From a virus: DNA of 10,522 nucleotides. Each line of letters begins with the position of its first letter. The stretch's first letter is position 1. Shown in pieces: positions 895 through 7,714 of the stretch. A program made the position numbers and the translations under genes. The stretch is taken from the UHGV virus genome UHGV-1718161; one strand, given 5' to 3'. The notes beneath the pieces were generated by a model that saw only the letters and a program-made list of their open reading frames with translations, searched no databases and was not told the DNA's origin.

Positions 895-1836
895 TCACCC
901 CCTGAATCCTGCCGGGATCTGGCTGTAGTCCACGTTGTCGTAACTGGCTTTGAAGTACGGGTCTTCGCGTTTTTCGGTGTACGTGCTGACGGACGGCGAT
1001 AAGCGCAGGGAAAGCTCATCCCATTTTTCCCGCAGCTTCGACGGGCTGAGCACGTTACGGCACCAGAACGGATCGCGGCTGACGCGGCTGTACATCTCGC
1101 AGATTTGTTTGTGAGTACGACCATCCTGCACACACATCAGGCGAATTTCGTTTGCCCAGGCTGTCCAGTTCGGTTCTTTGGGACGAACCACCTCGCCGTC
1201 ACATTCGGCGGCCTGCTCGTACAGGGCGATGATTTTTTTCCAGAGCCACTGTGCGCAGGTCAAATCATCCTGCGTTCCCCACTGGCGCTTTTTAGGGCTG
1301 AATACAACCGCATTAGGATGGCGAGTTAAAAACTCCTGTTCAGCCGTCTGCGTGTCCGGTTGCGAAGCGTCCGGACGAGAAGTTTTTTTATCTGACGGAT
1401 CATGTTTTGATTTTACTGACGGATCCCCGCCAGATTCTGACGGGTGAAAACCCGCTTTTTTGCCAGATTTCGACGCATCAAATTTTGACGGGTCAGATTT
1501 TGATGCGTCAGATTTTGACGGGTCAGAATCTGACAATTGAGAAAATGCCGCTGCCTGAAGCTTCGCAACGTTAAGCTGATAAACATTCGACGCATTGCGG
1601 TTACCCTGGCGACGCGCCTTACGCGTTAACCAGCCTTCTGCTTCCAGCCGTGCGATAGCCGTTCTGACGGTACTCATCCCCGCGCCAATCTGACGGGCAA
1701 TGGTTTCAATTGATGGCCAGCACACACCTTCGTCATTACTGAAATCAGCCAGGCGGGCCATAATTGCCACGCTGGATAATTTCATGCCTGACGCAGCGCA
1801 ACCATCCCATACATAGCCGGTTAATTTAGTGCTCAT
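895..1836 (-). CDS. phage replication initiation protein (lambda O-like / replisome organizer) with internal origin iterons
   Basis: 313-aa ORF; ATG at 1836-1834 with GAGG upstream. N-terminal winged-HTH-like segment (SSVAIMARLADFSNDEGVCWPSIETIARQIGAGMSTVRTAIARLEAEGWL). Central low-complexity pentapeptide repeats (DPSKS/DASKS) are encoded by 15-bp DNA direct repeats, the arrangement lambda uses for ori inside O. Sits downstream of cro/CII as expected. Confidence 0.8.
   Translation of the reverse strand: MSTKLTGYVWDGCAASGMKLSSVAIMARLADFSNDEGVCWPSIETIARQIGAGMSTVRTAIARLEAEGWLTRKARRQGNRNASNVYQLNVAKLQAAAFSQLSDSDPSKSDASKSDPSKFDASKSGKKAGFHPSESGGDPSVKSKHDPSDKKTSRPDASQPDTQTAEQEFLTRHPNAVVFSPKKRQWGTQDDLTCAQWLWKKIIALYEQAAECDGEVVRPKEPNWTAWANEIRLMCVQDGRTHKQICEMYSRVSRDPFWCRNVLSPSKLREKWDELSLRLSPSVSTYTEKREDPYFKASYDNVDYSQIPAGFRG
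1431..1538. repeat. iteron array (about 6 tandem 15-16-bp direct repeats, consensus CAGATTTTGACGGGT) inside the replication gene; probable phage origin of replication
   Basis: Seen directly: cagattctgacgggtg (1431-1446), ccagatttcgacgcat (1463-1478), caaattttgacgggt (1479-1493), cagattttgatgcgt (1494-1508), cagattttgacgggt (1509-1523), cagaatctgacaatt (1524-1538). Degenerate CTGACGGAT copies lie at about 1391-1400 and 1416-1424. Confidence 0.65.
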
Positions 1837-2760: not shown

Positions 2761-3024
2761 TTACGCAGCTGAACCGCTAACTTTTGAATAGCACTCAGGT
2801 AATCCATCATTTGGATTGGGGTAAATATCAGGACGCAGTTCATGAGGGGTCACGGACCAGTTTCCCAACTCACAAAGTTGTAAAACCCGTTCTGACGGGA
2901 CTTGATTGTTAATTACCCAATTAGCGACGGATTGAGTGGACTTAAAACCAAAGTGACGGGCTACTTCAGATAAAGATTTTCCCGCAGCTTTTACTGCTTT
3001 CTCTGTGTAGTTTTGAGATGACAT
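2761..3024 (-). CDS. cro: Cro-like HTH regulator (YdaS/Cro family)
   Basis: 87-aa ORF divergent from the cI-like gene; ATG at 3024-3022 with GGAGGAG upstream. HTH segment (LSEVARHFGFKSTQSVANWV) and the ...ERVLQLCELGNWSVTPHELRPD... pattern typical of YdaS/Cro-type proteins (recalled). Confidence 0.8.
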   Translation of the reverse strand: MSSQNYTEKAVKAAGKSLSEVARHFGFKSTQSVANWVINNQVPSERVLQLCELGNWSVTPHELRPDIYPNPNDGLPECYSKVSGSAA

Positions 3025-3056
3025 ACCTTTCTCCTCCGAAATTCAGAGGGATGATG

Positions 3057-3092
3057 CTACTTAAAATAGCAAAATGCAACTACTTAAAATAG
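3057..3092. promoter_or_regulatory. OR-like operator/promoter region between divergent cro and cI: two copies of the 13-bp site CTACTTAAAATAG
   Basis: Seen directly: ctacttaaaatag at 3057-3069 and again at 3080-3092 (centres 23 bp apart), in the 70-bp gap between the cro start (3024) and the cI start. Related 13-mers with the same CTA...TAG ends occur at 3893-3905 and 5305-5317. Confidence 0.5.
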
Positions 3093-3094
3093 AA

Positions 3095-3835
3095 ATGACT
3101 AGCGTATGTGATGCGAGTAATCTTCTACCTATGGTAGAAGAACAGAAGTATCCAGATTTCGCCAAGAGACTAAACGAGCTAATGACAAACAAGGGAATTT
3201 CTGTCACCCAACTCAAAAGTCTTGTGGGCGTTACATATGAAATGGCGCGGCGATACACAATCGGCGCTGCGAAGCCTCGTGCCTCTGTCATGAATAAACT
3301 TGCATTGGCTCTGGGGGTATCAGCTTCATATTTAGAATATGGTGTTGGCGAGAGAGAAGGATGTAAGGAAATGGCAAGCATCCCCAATCCAACAAAACCC
3401 GATGTATACAGGATAGAAGTTTTGGATCTTAGCGTTAGCGCAGGACCTGGGACCTATATGCTTTCAGACTATGTTGATGTGCTCTACGCCATTGAGTTCA
3501 CAACAGAGCATGCCCGTTCTCTTTTCGGTAATCGTTCTCAAGATGATATTAAAGTTATGACTGTAAATGGCGACAGCATGTCCCCTACTCTAGTTTCCGG
3601 AGATCGACTGTTTGTCGACATTTCTGTTCGCAACTTCCAAACTGATGGTGTTTACTCTTTCGTTTATGGTAAGACGTTCCACGTTAAACGTCTACAAATG
3701 CAAGGCAACAAACTCGCCGTTCTTTCGGATAATCCAGCCTATGAGAAATGGTACATTGATGAGAAGTCCCAAGATCAACTTTATGTTATGGGCAAAGCAT
3801 TGATACACGAATCAATTAAATACAACCGGCTTTAG
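3095..3835 (+). CDS. cI: cI-type prophage repressor (N-terminal XRE-family HTH, C-terminal LexA-like S24 peptidase domain)
   Basis: HTH (FAKRLNELMTNKGISVTQLKSLVGVTYEMARRY), S24 serine motif (VNGDSMSPTL) and downstream catalytic Lys (FHVKRL). Start is ambiguous: the ORF-track ATG at 3074 lies between the two operator copies, so I prefer ATG 3095 (leaderless-style); ATG 3131 is also possible. Stop TAG 3833-3835. Confidence 0.85.
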   Translation: MTSVCDASNLLPMVEEQKYPDFAKRLNELMTNKGISVTQLKSLVGVTYEMARRYTIGAAKPRASVMNKLALALGVSASYLEYGVGEREGCKEMASIPNPTKPDVYRIEVLDLSVSAGPGTYMLSDYVDVLYAIEFTTEHARSLFGNRSQDDIKVMTVNGDSMSPTLVSGDRLFVDISVRNFQTDGVYSFVYGKTFHVKRLQMQGNKLAVLSDNPAYEKWYIDEKSQDQLYVMGKALIHESIKYNRL

Positions 3836-4006: not shown

Positions 4007-5083
4007 ATGACAAAATCAATTTGTTTTTTTAATCATAAAGGTGGGGTAAGTAAAACCACAACAACCTTCAATCTTGGATGGGCACTTGCGGATGAAGGCA
4101 AGAAAGTATTGATGGTTGACCTTGATTCGCAATGTAATCTAACAGGAATGGTTCTTGGCTATGAAAAGATTGATGAGGGTTTAGATTCTTTTTATTCTAG
4201 CAGAGATAACTTAACTCTTGGACCTATTGTAGAATATTTGATTAATGGCGGACAACCTGAAGCATACCTTGAAAAAGAAACGGGAAAATTACACCCTACA
4301 CTGCATGAAAACCTTCTGCTTCTTCCCGGACATTTAGATGTTTCGGACTTAGATTCACAGATAAGTGTTTCTCTAAAAATTGCTGCTGGTATTCCTGCTA
4401 CAAGAAATATACCAGGGAACCTGCCAAAAATATTACAGCTAATCGCCTTGAAGAATAATATTGATTACATTCTTTATGATCTCAGCCCTAATGTTGGAGG
4501 TTTAAATGAAGTAGTTCTCATGTCAAGTGACTATTTTATCGTACCTGTAGCTCCAGACTTTTTTTGCTGGCAAGCAATTCGCTCTCTCTCAAAAAATATA
4601 CCTCGCTGGCACAAAGAATTAGCATTATTTAAAGAAAATAATGATGGTAACTCTTCACAATCAATTAAAAATGCACCGCAGTTTCTAGGTATGATTCAGC
4701 AGAGATACAGGCCGCGTAAAGGAGCACCTGTAAAATCTTTCGAAAAATGGATGGCAGCTATCCGTGATGCTGTTGATTCGATCTTAGTGCCAAATCTAGA
4801 AAAAATTACCTGCATAATTCCACGAGATAAAGTGCAACATGCAATTAACAAAACAACAGTCAGTGGAGATTTATCAGCCTATGATCTTGCGCATATTTCC
4901 GATTTCAACTCATTAATCGCAATAAGCCAACAACTAGCGACACCTGTTTTCTCCATCAGTGATCAGCAAATTCGCGATTCAGGGCAATTTGGGCATGCCT
5001 TAAATACAATGAAATCAAGCAGAGACGCCTTTAACGAACAATTTAAAGGGCTGGCTCAACGAGTTCTAGAACTTACAAAGTAA
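4007..5083 (+). CDS. ParA/MinD-superfamily ATPase with a roughly 120-aa C-terminal extension (358 aa); candidate lysogen-expressed exclusion/defence protein
   Basis: Deviant Walker A NHKGGVSKTT (res 9-18), ParA-type LMVDLDSQCNL, Walker-B-like ILYDLSP. AAGGA/GAGAAA RBS before ATG 4007. Sits in a visibly AT-rich segment directly downstream of cI in the same orientation and is followed by an intrinsic terminator. No ParB-like partner ORF or parS-like repeats nearby. Confidence 0.85.
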   Translation: MTKSICFFNHKGGVSKTTTTFNLGWALADEGKKVLMVDLDSQCNLTGMVLGYEKIDEGLDSFYSSRDNLTLGPIVEYLINGGQPEAYLEKETGKLHPTLHENLLLLPGHLDVSDLDSQISVSLKIAAGIPATRNIPGNLPKILQLIALKNNIDYILYDLSPNVGGLNEVVLMSSDYFIVPVAPDFFCWQAIRSLSKNIPRWHKELALFKENNDGNSSQSIKNAPQFLGMIQQRYRPRKGAPVKSFEKWMAAIRDAVDSILVPNLEKITCIIPRDKVQHAINKTTVSGDLSAYDLAHISDFNSLIAISQQLATPVFSISDQQIRDSGQFGHALNTMKSSRDAFNEQFKGLAQRVLELTK

Positions 5084-5090
5084 TGCATGT

Positions 5091-5127
5091 GCCCGGCCGC
5101 ATAACCGGGCTTTACTCTTCTTTCTCC
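5091..5127 (+). terminator. rho-independent terminator after the ParA-like gene
   Basis: GCCCGG (5091-5096), loop ccgcataa, CCGGGC (5105-5110), followed by a T-rich tract tttactcttctttct. Confidence 0.6.
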
Positions 5128-5268: not shown

Positions 5269-5326
5269 CAACAACAAATATCTACTTTTTGTTGTTGATT
5301 TTTGCTACTTTAAGTAGCAACATAAT
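5269..5326 (+). promoter_or_regulatory. pL/OL-like regulatory region: two adjacent palindromes plus a -10-like CATAAT
   Basis: Inverted repeat caacaacaaa (5269-5278) / tttgttgttg (5288-5297). Perfect 19-bp palindrome ttgctacttTaagtagcaa (5302-5320) containing the operator-like 13-mer CTACTTTAAGTAG (5305-5317). CATAAT at 5321-5326, TTGATT at 5295-5300 (spacing not ideal). Position mirrors lambda oL/pL after the rex slot. Confidence 0.35.
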
Positions 5327-5404
5327 GTAAGCTATCACGGACAGGCAGGACGCCCACGAAGTAGCCTCCTGGGACATATGAAGTCCAGGATGATTCGTTA
5401 GCAA

Positions 5405-5428
5405 CAAAAAAGCGCCCTACAGGACGCT
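5405..5428 (-). terminator. rho-independent terminator of the minus-strand 173-aa gene
   Basis: On the minus strand: AGCGTCC-TGTA-GGGCGCT (7-bp stem with one G-U pair) followed by TTTTTTGTTGC, about 40 nt after the stop at 5471. Confidence 0.55.
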
Positions 5429-5430
5429 TA

Positions 5431-5443
5431 GCTCTTTAACAAT
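5431..5443 (+). promoter_or_regulatory. boxA-like antitermination motif (GCTCTTTAACAAT), rrn/phage-21-type
   Basis: Plus-strand gcttaGCTCTTTAACAATctggg matches the rrn boxA core TGCTCTTTAACAA and resembles the phage 21 nut boxA as I recall it. Lies about 110 nt downstream of the pL-like palindrome and 2 nt after a hairpin (boxB-before-boxA order, as in rrn leaders). Confidence 0.4.
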
Positions 5444-5470
5444 CTGGGTATCATCCAACCAATGCAAGAT

Positions 5471-5992
5471 TTAAGGAATCCAAGGCGAATTCAGATCTCG
5501 CCCCAACTCACGTAATGATCTTGGTCGTTCGTACATCGGATTTTTTTCCATAAGAAATTTATTTTCACAGTGAAGGCAACGGCTTGTAAGAAAATGAGAA
5601 GTTTTACCTACTGGAAGCGGATGAAGTATCGATTTTATATTTTTGGAATAACAAAGTGGGCACAGATGCACAGTTATTTCTTTTCCACTCACAATTTCAT
5701 TTTTAGAGTAAACAAAAGCACCAGAGTCAAGCTGATCAAGGACATATCCTTCTACCTTGGCACAAAAATCTTCAAACTCTGCAATTTTTGCTTTGAGATG
5801 CATCACCTCTTCATCACGAAGGCGGATCGCATCGCCAAGAGAGAAGCATTCTGCCTGAAGCGTGATTAGTTTGTTCTGGAGTTCAATGGTTGCAGCTTTA
5901 ACTTCTGCATCCGTTTTCGCGTCATTAATAACCTTAGCAAGACCGGCAGTCTCCTTTATAGCGGCCATAGCCGCAGACAGTTCAGCTATCAC
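5471..5992 (-). CDS. hypothetical coiled-coil protein with a C-terminal C4 zinc ribbon (173 aa)
   Basis: N-terminal 80 residues are Ala/Lys/Glu-rich and helical; CPLC (111-114) and CLHC (139-142) form CxxC-x24-CxxC. ORF-track start is a GTG at 5992; the first ATG is at 5968-5966, neither with a strong SD. Own terminator downstream. Antisense plus-strand ORFs (5570..5869, 5862..6056) look like low-complexity shadows. Confidence 0.7.
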   Translation of the reverse strand: MIAELSAAMAAIKETAGLAKVINDAKTDAEVKAATIELQNKLITLQAECFSLGDAIRLRDEEVMHLKAKIAEFEDFCAKVEGYVLDQLDSGAFVYSKNEIVSGKEITVHLCPLCYSKNIKSILHPLPVGKTSHFLTSRCLHCENKFLMEKNPMYERPRSLRELGRDLNSPWIP

Positions 5993-6008
5993 GTTGAATA
6001 CTCAGCTA

Positions 6009-6052
6009 GTTGTTGGGGATATCCAGATTAACCAAATCCTTGTTGTTGGGGA
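6009..6052. repeat. two direct copies of GTTGTTGGGGA flanked by CTAG, in the promoter region of the 173-aa gene
   Basis: gttgttgggga at 6009-6019 (followed by tat) and at 6042-6052 (followed by ata), 33 bp apart; ctag at 6005-6008 and 6057-6060. Confidence 0.45.
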
Positions 6053-6461
6053 ATAACTAGGTCCACCTCGCCTGATGTGGCTAAAAGCAGGCACATAACA
6101 GCTAAGTATTTTCAACCAGAGAGAATCCTTAGCGTTGTGGTGAATGCGGCTCAGCGCACGCGGGTTAAGGTTGAGGCTGACAGTCGACCTTCTGTGGATA
6201 CCCACCCGCCTGGTGTGCAACCTTCGCCAGGCACCGGGAGGCACCCGGCACCACAACTTTATGCTGTGTGTAGTCCTGGCGGTATCAGCTTGTACCCTTG
6301 CTTCCGGCTGGTACCGTCCTTTTTACAAAACAGAGAAGAGTATCACCGGACGACGGGCTCATAACCCAATCCATCCGGGCGGCTGCCACCGCAGGTGTTC
6401 TTCTCTGTTTTGTGGAGAAACCAACCGACCTTGCAGGGTCGATATGATGGGGAGCAGCAAA

Positions 6462-6824
6462 ATGGCTAGCGAACGCAGTACTGATGTGCAGGCATTTATC
6501 GGGGAGCTGGACGGCGGCGTATTTGAAACCAAAATCGGCGCAGTTCTCAGTGAAGTCGCTTCCGGTGTGATGAACACGAAAACCAAAGGTAAGGTCTCGC
6601 TCAACCTGGAAATCGAACCGTTTGATGAGAACCGTGTAAAAATCAAACACAAACTCTCATATGTTCGCCCGACTAACCGCGGGAAAATTTCCGAAGAAGA
6701 CACCACCGAAACGCCGATGTATGTCAATCGCGGTGGTCGCCTGACTATTCTGCAGGAAGACCAGGGACAATTACTGACTCTTGCCGGTGAACCTGACGGA
6801 AAACTCCGCGCAGCAGGTCGTTAA
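6462..6824 (+). CDS. yfdP: hypothetical early-left accessory protein, YfdP-like (120 aa)
   Basis: The ORF-track frame is open from 6144, but the N-terminal 100 aa are R/C/W/P-rich junk typical of GC-rich non-coding DNA. ATG 6462 is preceded by GGAGC. Length and position match the first gene of the yfdP-Q-R-S-T block of E. coli K-12 CPS-53 (recalled from memory). Confidence 0.6.
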   Translation: MASERSTDVQAFIGELDGGVFETKIGAVLSEVASGVMNTKTKGKVSLNLEIEPFDENRVKIKHKLSYVRPTNRGKISEEDTTETPMYVNRGGRLTILQEDQGQLLTLAGEPDGKLRAAGR

Positions 6825-6889
6825 TATCGTTTTTAATAAACTGATTATTTATCTCATCACTGAATATCTTTATATAGTGAGGACTTATT

Positions 6890-7714
6890 ATGTCTCAGAA
6901 CTTAGACGCAACCGCAATTAATCAAATCCATGCCCTTATTTCTGCTCAGGGTGTTAATGAAATTATCAGTAAGATTGGTGCCGATGCTGTGGCATTGCCT
7001 GAGAATTTCCGCATTCATGATCTGGAAAAATTTAATTTAAATCGCTTCCGTTTCCGTGGTGCGCTTTCCACTGCCAGCATCGATGACTTTACCCGTTATT
7101 CTAAAGATCTTGCAGATGAAGGCACCCGCTGCTTTATCGATGCTGATAATATGCGAGCCGTCAGTGTGCTTAACCTGGGTACTATTGATGAACCAGGTCA
7201 CGCAGATAACACCGCCACTCTCAAACTGAAAAAGACAGCACCGTTCTCTGCCCTGTTGTCTGTTAACGGCGAGCGTAACTCCCAGAAGTCACTGGCAGAA
7301 TGGATTGAAGACTGGGCCGACTACCTTGTGGGCTTTGATGCTAATGGTGACGCCATTCAGGCAACAAAAGCGGCTGCGGCGGTCCGTAAAATCACGATTG
7401 AAGCAAACCAGACCGCTGATTTTGAAGACAATGACTTCAGCGGCAAACGCTCTCTGATGGAGTCTGTCGAAGCGAAAACCAAAGACATTATGCCAGTAGC
7501 ATTTGAGTTTAAATGCGTTCCGTTTGAAGGCCTGAAAGAACGTCCGTTTAAATTACGCCTCAGCATTATCACTGGTGATCGCCCTGTACTGGTTCTGCGC
7601 ATTATTCAGCTGGAAGCAGTGCAGGAAGAAATGGCTAACGAATTTCGTGATCTGCTTGTTGAAAAATTCAAAGACAGCAAAGTAGAAACCTTTATTGGTA
7701 CTTTCACCGCCTGA
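6890..7714 (+). CDS. yfdQ: YfdQ-family phage protein (274 aa), function unknown
   Basis: Clean ORF with GAGGA 6 nt before ATG 6890, followed by a hairpin terminator. Length, sequence impression and gene order match YfdQ of K-12 CPS-53 (recalled). Confidence 0.75.

Follow-up and report, generated by a model that had tools for sequence, protein, structure and literature searches.

What function is served by a small gene that a lambdoid prophage carries on the strand opposite to its own early-left operon? The locus that raises this question lies in UHGV-1718161, a viral genome stretch of 10,522 nucleotides (nt), the whole of which was analysed and is referred to here as the window. An initial annotation, made from the DNA letters alone, had described the gene as encoding a 173-amino-acid protein with a zinc ribbon, and had read that protein as an exclusion factor or, alternatively, as a regulator. 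We are now highly confident that the product is a diverged member of the Rip1 (ring interacting pore 1) family of prophage-encoded proteins. By analogy with the characterised members of that family, we further consider it probable that the gene encodes an abortive-infection protein with a ring-templated pore mechanism.

The question first concerns whether the gene is real, and on which strand it is read. The open reading frame (ORF) is the following:

5471..5992, minus strand: coding sequence of the Rip1-family protein, 173 amino acids, GTG start; identified by phrog_1244, by Protein Data Bank (PDB) entry 9oox and by third-codon-position bias

Relative to five homologues, substitutions fall mostly on the third base of the minus-strand codons (15/12/42 for the Citrobacter homologue), so the minus strand is the coding strand and the ORF originally proposed stands as drawn. 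The N-terminus MIAELSAAM is kept in 37 aligned homologues, and the start codon is GTG in nearly all of 20 loci drawn from more than 12 genera. An identical product is present in RefSeq as WP_000559913.1, where it is named 'hypothetical protein'. Two further ORFs, one of 41 amino acids at 5282-5407 (minus strand) and one of 99 amino acids at 5570-5869 (plus strand), have no family matches or other support and were treated as spurious.

Both sequence and fold place the protein among the Rip1 proteins. It matches phrog_1244 with E=2.7e-52, a family that is also matched by HK446 Rip1 (2.2e-53), JBD30 gp30 (2.7e-61) and the allele found in phage PhiR29_1 (9.3e-60). In the PDB, a profile of 37 homologues aligns along residues 5-152 with 9oox_L, 'ring interacting pore 1 (Rip1)' (E=3.4e-20), and a search with the single sequence reaches 9oox at E=1.8e-9 with both CxxC pairs aligned. 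All four cysteines line up with those of HK446 Rip1 in this entry, which is titled 'Cryo-EM structure of the Escherichia phage HK446 Rip1 in complex with the Enterobacteria phage T6 small terminase'. A tblastn search of phage genomes returned the PhiR29/PhiR49 alleles at 58% identity, Klebsiella phages at 45%, the Pseudomonas casadabanviruses (JBD30, DMS3, MP38 and D3112 orf25) at approximately 30% (E=1e-12) and HK446 gp37 at 25% (E=4e-6). The close homologues recovered by a word-indexed search number 167, all unnamed and nearly all from Enterobacterales, while an exhaustive profile search extends the family to 2452 cluster representatives at E<=1e-3, or 748 at E<=1e-10, all of around 145-180 amino acids. 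These relatives make the 173-amino-acid protein part of a large family whose founding members are characterised. Pfam yielded a sub-threshold coiled-coil match alone (DUF641, which scored 18 bits where 27.6 are required), and PADLOC-DB 2023 returned no meaningful match for the protein because Rip1 post-dates that release.

The predicted structure leads to the same family. An AlphaFold2 (AF2) model built on the homologue alignment, with a mean predicted local distance difference test score (pLDDT) of 91.9, consists of two helices, a beta-rich domain and a short tail, which correspond to the following parts of the gene:

5756..5992, minus strand: codons 1-79, two long helices (residues 2-24 and 28-79) in the AF2 model; highest conservation within the protein, the N-terminus being rich in Ala and moderately hydrophobic
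5543..5743, minus strand: codons 84-150, beta-rich domain with the C4 zinc ribbon, from AF2 strands, invariant cysteines and Foldseek; lower conservation
5474..5542, minus strand: codons 151-173, C-terminal tail with a short helix, from alignments; conservation 0.28, pLDDT 60-82

Foldseek found just two significant matches to this model in the PDB, 9oox_L and 9oox_M, both with probability 1.0 and with target-normalised template modelling (TM) scores of 0.52 and 0.71, respectively; every other PDB match had E>0.3. The remote-homology check that had been proposed for this gene, run by Foldseek and by profile searches, thus gives Rip1 (9oox) as its sole significant fold match. The architecture is that of Rip1, with N-terminal helices followed by a C-terminal globular domain. 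The initial annotation had correctly seen a helical N-terminal half and a CxxC-x24-CxxC pattern at residues 111-142: the helices are those of the AF2 model, and C111, C114, C139 and C142 are all invariant in the homologue alignment, as is C49, which lies within a helix. Its coiled-coil label is better replaced by that of a Rip1-family N-terminal helical, pore-forming part.

Conservation is unevenly spread over these domains. Expressed as the mean majority-residue fraction, it amounts to 0.83 and 0.77 for the two N-terminal helices, 0.55 for the zinc-ribbon region and 0.28 for the tail, which occurs in part of the enterobacterial subfamily only and is missing from HK446 and JBD30 Rip1. A 19-residue Kyte-Doolittle (KD19) scan detected no transmembrane-grade segment; the Ala-rich N-terminus is the most hydrophobic part of the protein, as in HK446 Rip1, with KD19 maxima of 1.06 at residue 1 here and 1.28 at residue 11 in HK446 Rip1. 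By analogy with the published proteins, the N-terminal helices would be the pore-forming module, and the variable beta/zinc-ribbon domain would be the sensor that contacts phage rings.

This division of labour draws on what has been reported for the family. Rip1 is a prophage-encoded, single-protein defence that is without toxicity by itself (PMC13434031). Mutations that allow phages to escape it map to the portal gene in Pseudomonas phages and to the small terminase gene in Escherichia coli phages, and a 12-mer Rip1 ring encircles the 11-mer ring of the small terminase (PMC13434031). The N-terminal part of Rip1 is made up of amphipathic helices, contact with the terminase is made through the C-terminal half, and the assembly forms a pore, as judged by dye release from liposomes, holes in cells and premature lysis (PMC13434031). 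Homologues are widespread among proteobacterial prophages (PMC13434031), and Rip1 has been listed as a protein that senses the small terminase subunit (PMC13601566). The Rip1 proteins of HK446 and of P. aeruginosa JBD-type prophages were described by Patel et al. 2026, Nature 651:1060, as cited in PMC13434031.

Carried over to the present gene, this biology suggests the following sequence of events. A lysogen would contain a low level of the protein, in keeping with its GTG start and weak Shine-Dalgarno sequence, and this protein would be harmless on its own. Once a superinfecting phage reached late gene expression, ring-shaped oligomers of its small terminase or portal would bind the variable C-terminal domain and template a Rip1 ring of roughly 12 subunits, after which the conserved N-terminal helices would open a pore in the inner membrane. 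Death or lysis of the cell would then precede maturation of the progeny, and neighbouring lysogens would be protected. Upon induction of the resident prophage, transcription from the early-left promoter pL would run antisense through the gene and lower its expression. The restriction of expression to lysogens by antisense read-through from pL, which the initial annotation had envisaged, is plausible on this arrangement; expression in the lysogen is itself an assumption because no promoter was identified.

Several observations weigh against reading the gene in this way. A consensus scan of the minus strand upstream of 5992 detected no sigma-70 consensus promoter, and the protein is only 25-30% identical to those Rip1 proteins that have been characterised. 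The N-terminal helix is just moderately amphipathic, with a hydrophobic moment (muH) of about 0.34, and the subfamily has features of its own in the form of the extra C-terminal tail and the invariant Cys49.

The genomic position of the gene bears directly on whether it is an exclusion factor, and three elements to its left define that position:

5278..5326, plus strand: left operators (OL) and putative pL; inverted copy of the right operator (OR) block, TGCTACTTTAAGTAGCA and a -10-like CATAAT at 5321-5326 (read directly)
5400..5429, minus strand: intrinsic terminator; stem 5429-5410 with 8 pairs, then TTTTGTTGCT (minus strand)
5431..5442, plus strand: rrn-type boxA core GCTCTTTAACAA; unique exact match, directly after the hairpin that lies in the pL leader approximately 100 nt past pL

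Positions 5278-5323 repeat the OR block (3051-3096) in inverted orientation, over 46 nt and with 80% complementarity, and the perfect palindromic operator TGCTACTTTAAGTAGCA lies within them at 5303-5319. Because of this inverted copy, OL and pL are placed near 5300, with pL reading rightward into the antisense strand of the gene, in agreement with the position of about 5300 that had been suggested for the promoter. The gene is therefore convergent with the early-left operon, as had been described. It also has its own terminator, a further feature that the initial annotation had recognised: the hairpin has a folding energy of -11.5 kcal/mol on the minus strand versus -7.5 kcal/mol on the plus strand, and the U-run follows the stem on the minus strand only. 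The terminator is kept in PhiR29_1 and SfIV, and its plus-strand copy, which lacks a U-run, sits in the pL leader. We take GCTCTTTAACAA to be a boxA on the basis of the consensus as generally known; this core is likewise kept in SfIV and PhiR29_1. Hairpin and boxA together (5410-5442) are a candidate nutL with the rrn-like order of boxB and boxA, and boxA marks the left edge of the cargo slot. No counterpart in the manner of nutR was detected on the early-right promoter (pR) side, in that part of the pR operon which lies within the window.

There is no N-like gene between pL and the early-left genes. The initial annotation had placed the gene where an N-like antiterminator would be expected, on the opposite strand. 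The strand is as it described, and the slot is better understood as the equivalent of the lambda sieB position, in which sieB (34482-35036, plus strand) runs beside and against N and ral (minus strand). The gene holds this position, as does HK446 rip1, which runs against the pL operon with N on one side and ral/cIII on the other. An antisense orientation recurs elsewhere in the family: JBD30 gp30 lies antisense between the terS-like gp29 and terL, and the Edwardsiella and Klebsiella homologues lie antisense and adjoin the repressor. At 13 of 17 further genome loci, for which ORFs were called heuristically, the next downstream ORF is convergent; it usually encodes 126-234 amino acids and is followed by a block of rightward genes, the pattern of a repressor and cro. 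The gene in the window is thus a single prophage-borne gene set apart from the lytic genes, antisense to pL and with its own terminator. The exclusion-factor reading is supported because the protein belongs to the Rip1 family and because its gene occupies the equivalent of the sieB slot.

The content of this slot is variable. In comparison with PhiR29_1, the flanks at 5350-5449 and 6000-6500 are 96-100% identical and the coding sequence only 52-78%; the interval between boxA and the leader (5450-6000) contains a 58%-identical rip1 allele in that phage. SfIV has the same flanks (L002 in our set of loci, 4100-4780), and these enclose the minus-strand gene SfIV_36 (phrog_5286; 'ECs1072 family' in RefSeq) together with a small ORF in the pL sense that has a strong Shine-Dalgarno sequence. 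A survey of 5426 complete E. coli genomes found that 2875 match some part of 5340-6900 and that in 373 of the 5426 (about 7%) the slot is spanned by a rip1-type allele. In a sample spread over the matches, other genomes contain ECs1072-type cargo, or match on the right-hand side only, starting at about 6063 or 6277. On these sequence comparisons, the interval from boxA to the leader acts as a site at which alleles and cargo are exchanged. Conserved N-terminal helices joined to a variable C-terminal domain, with alleles between like flanks, fit a conserved effector coupled to a diversifying sensor; such an effector with a fast-diverging sensor, swapped as alleles, would be expected of a defence gene.

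The same comparisons bear on a different role for the Rip1 fold, in which it would serve the phage's own life cycle, in lysis timing or in DNA packaging through the phage's own terminase or portal, and not defence. The Pseudomonas homologue does sit between the small and large terminase genes, and the family binds the small terminase (9oox). However, the gene is always opposite in strand to the surrounding lytic genes, the sieB-type slot holds genes that exclude other phages, and the exchange of alleles and unrelated cargo in this slot is unlike what is seen for essential morphogenesis functions. Published work on Rip1 moreover reports a defence phenotype (PMC13434031). We consider a role in the phage's own development unlikely, and retain the reading of the gene as a Rip1-family defence gene.

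The region immediately upstream of the gene forms a unit in its own right:

5993..6105, minus strand: upstream module (leader and/or promoter) with two CCCCAACAAC repeats, a weak Shine-Dalgarno sequence and the GTG start

Read on the opposite (plus) strand, the repeats are exact copies of GTTGTTGGGGA at 6009-6019 and 6042-6052, 33 nt apart. Approximately 0.2 chance matches to this sequence are expected, and two matches were reached in 2 of 200 shuffles. When extended, each becomes a 14-mer (6006-6019 and 6039-6052). They belong to a module of around 105 nt with about 82% mean column identity over the 20 loci and more than 12 genera mentioned above, which exceeds the conservation of the coding sequence. 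Besides 5993-6105 (minus strand) in the window, the module is located at L002 4765-4872 and L005 3893-4000, in L006, L010 and L012-L029, and at L031 2501-2550 and L032 2501-2551.

The module or its 5' half also precedes unrelated cargo. It is found before the ECs1072-family gene in SfIV, and its 5' half lies before sieB in Hafnia phage Pocitis76 and before an HK446-like rip1 in vB_EcoM-689R2; it was not found upstream of HK446 rip1 or JBD30 rip1. The initial annotation had seen here a promoter region with two direct repeats. The repeats are confirmed, at the positions given above, and the consensus promoter is not; moreover, the repeats are not specific to this gene, being part of a module that precedes other cargo genes as well. 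A TGT-TATGTG sequence, noticed by eye just 5' of the point at which conservation sets in, resembles an extended -10 element and is poorly conserved, and we make no claim for it. As a leader RNA in the sense of the gene, the module folds with only -5.1 kcal/mol in RNAalifold and no covariation. In the pL sense the value is -9.3 kcal/mol, and one pair changes from C-G to G-U in two lineages, which is too little for a structure call. No Rfam family matches the leader. The module contains AAC/AAG (ARN-like) runs and a ACAAGGAU motif, which we presume to suggest Hfq or CsrA-type binding. Tentatively, the module can be pictured as a portable regulatory cassette by which enterobacterial prophages express various exclusion genes in the antisense slot just downstream of pL, among them sieB, ECs1072-family genes and rip1 alleles from two subfamilies. 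Together with convergent pL, such a cassette would tie their output to lysogeny and keep a pore-former from firing during induction of its own prophage.

Convergent transcription could be the main selected function, with an RNA that damps a leaky pL and a protein that is secondary; the antisense orientation to pL recurs, and the upstream module is both better conserved than the coding sequence and common to unrelated cargo genes. Nonetheless, purifying selection on the protein is clear, its cysteines are invariant, and its family comprises 2452 cluster representatives, some of them at sites unrelated to pL. We therefore judge convergent transcription very improbable as the main function, while recognising that it and defence are compatible and not mutually exclusive. 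That the protein is a zinc-ribbon regulator of the prophage, transcriptional or post-transcriptional, as the initial annotation had offered in the alternative, is scarcely credible: the C4 zinc ribbon, the long helical region and a place beside the immunity region would suit such a protein, yet no DNA-binding or regulator family of the Pfam/NCBI type matches it, its sequence and fold relatives are Rip1 only, and the next fold matches in the PDB have E>0.3. Two specific assignments were set aside in the same way. An Ogr/Delta-type zinc-finger regulator has no corresponding Pfam match at E<=0.01 and no corresponding fold match, and an N-type antiterminator, normally a small, arginine-rich protein encoded beyond nutL in the pL sense, is contradicted by the strand, which is opposite to pL, by the absence of any antiterminator family match and by membership of the Rip1 family instead.

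In its wider context, the window covers the immunity and early-left functions of a lambdoid prophage. This prophage is SfV/SfIV/CPS-53-like and sits at the tRNA-Thr gene adjoining proA; the layout is as follows:

895-1836, minus strand: O-like replication gene
ending at 3024, minus strand: CII/CP76-like gene and cro
3051-3096: OR, the cro/cI intergenic block
ending at 3835, plus strand: S24-peptidase repressor cI
4007-5083, plus strand: ParA-like ATPase gene, with its own terminator at 5091-5110
5471-5992, minus strand: Rip1-like ORF
to the right of the Rip1-like ORF, in order: yfdP, yfdQ (DUF2303), yfdR, yfdT, xis, int, tRNA-Thr

Two neighbouring regions merit separate description. The ParA/AAA_31 ATPase gene (358 amino acids) is situated between cI and OL, in the place of lambda rexAB, and is missing from PhiR29_1 and SfIV, where cI abuts OL. 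Its product has a weak PADLOC match to the candidate system PDC-M28B (5.8e-9) that covers the P-loop region only, and the gene may be another lysogen-expressed cargo gene. Right of the upstream module, the plus-strand segment 6104-6326 is GC-rich, conserved among SfV-like phages and annotated by the Prokaryotic Genome Annotation Pipeline (PGAP) as a hypothetical gene with a frameshift. Over the full model, the segment matches STnc100 (Rfam RF02076), a family of prophage small RNAs, at 40.5 bits, below the gathering score of 47 (E=5e-7); it includes a DicF-like piece at 6265-6319, has a fold z-score of -3.7 and closes with a long hairpin and a T-run near 6276-6326. This segment is probably a prophage small RNA or a terminator element within the pL transcript. 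Just 5' of yfdP there is, in addition, a perfect 15-nt inverted repeat, ACAAAACAGAGAAGA / TCTTCTCTGTTTTGT, at 6325-6339 and 6399-6413, with its arms 59 nt apart.

Both the Rip1 family and its mechanism have been described before, so the present finding is a confirmation, and the shared upstream module is the sole part that might be new. The analysis nonetheless provides a likely function for the RefSeq 'hypothetical' protein WP_000559913.1, and adds to the Rip1 defence family a diverged branch from enterobacteria, whose variable C-terminal domain is useful for questions of trigger specificity. More generally, it presents the sieB-type antisense position behind pL as a recurrent exchange slot for exclusion genes.

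Set beside known systems, the gene most closely resembles the Rip1 genes of HK446 and the JBD phages. It has phrog_1244 membership and similarity of sequence and fold in common with them, is of comparable size (164 vs 173 amino acids), encodes N-terminal helices followed by a four-cysteine domain, and is a single prophage gene antisense to a lytic operon; with HK446 rip1 it additionally shares a location in the early-left operon. In contrast to the HK446 (25% identity) and JBD30 (30% identity) proteins, it has a C-terminal tail of roughly 20 residues and the invariant Cys49, and in contrast to their genes it is preceded by the conserved module of approximately 105 nt. Unlike HK446 rip1, it follows immediately on pL and boxA, without an intervening N gene. 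SieB of lambda, P22 and Rac offers a second parallel, as a phage-excluding gene that is antisense in the pL operon near pL and N. However, no relationship to SieB was detected in sequence, a transmembrane-grade segment is missing, and the mechanism differs. Membership of the SieB family was rejected, with no SieB Pfam match and a KD19 maximum of only 1.06; the shared genomic position alone connects the two.

A third comparison is with RexAB of lambda, a lysogen-expressed abortive-infection system of two proteins that are co-transcribed with cI and whose action ends in membrane depolarisation. Unlike RexAB, the gene described here would encode a separate, single-protein sensor-effector, and the place adjoining cI is taken by the ParA-like gene at 4007-5083. 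Like RexAB, it would represent a prophage abortive-infection function within the immunity region, for which the end point, on the Rip1 side by homology, is the loss of membrane integrity.

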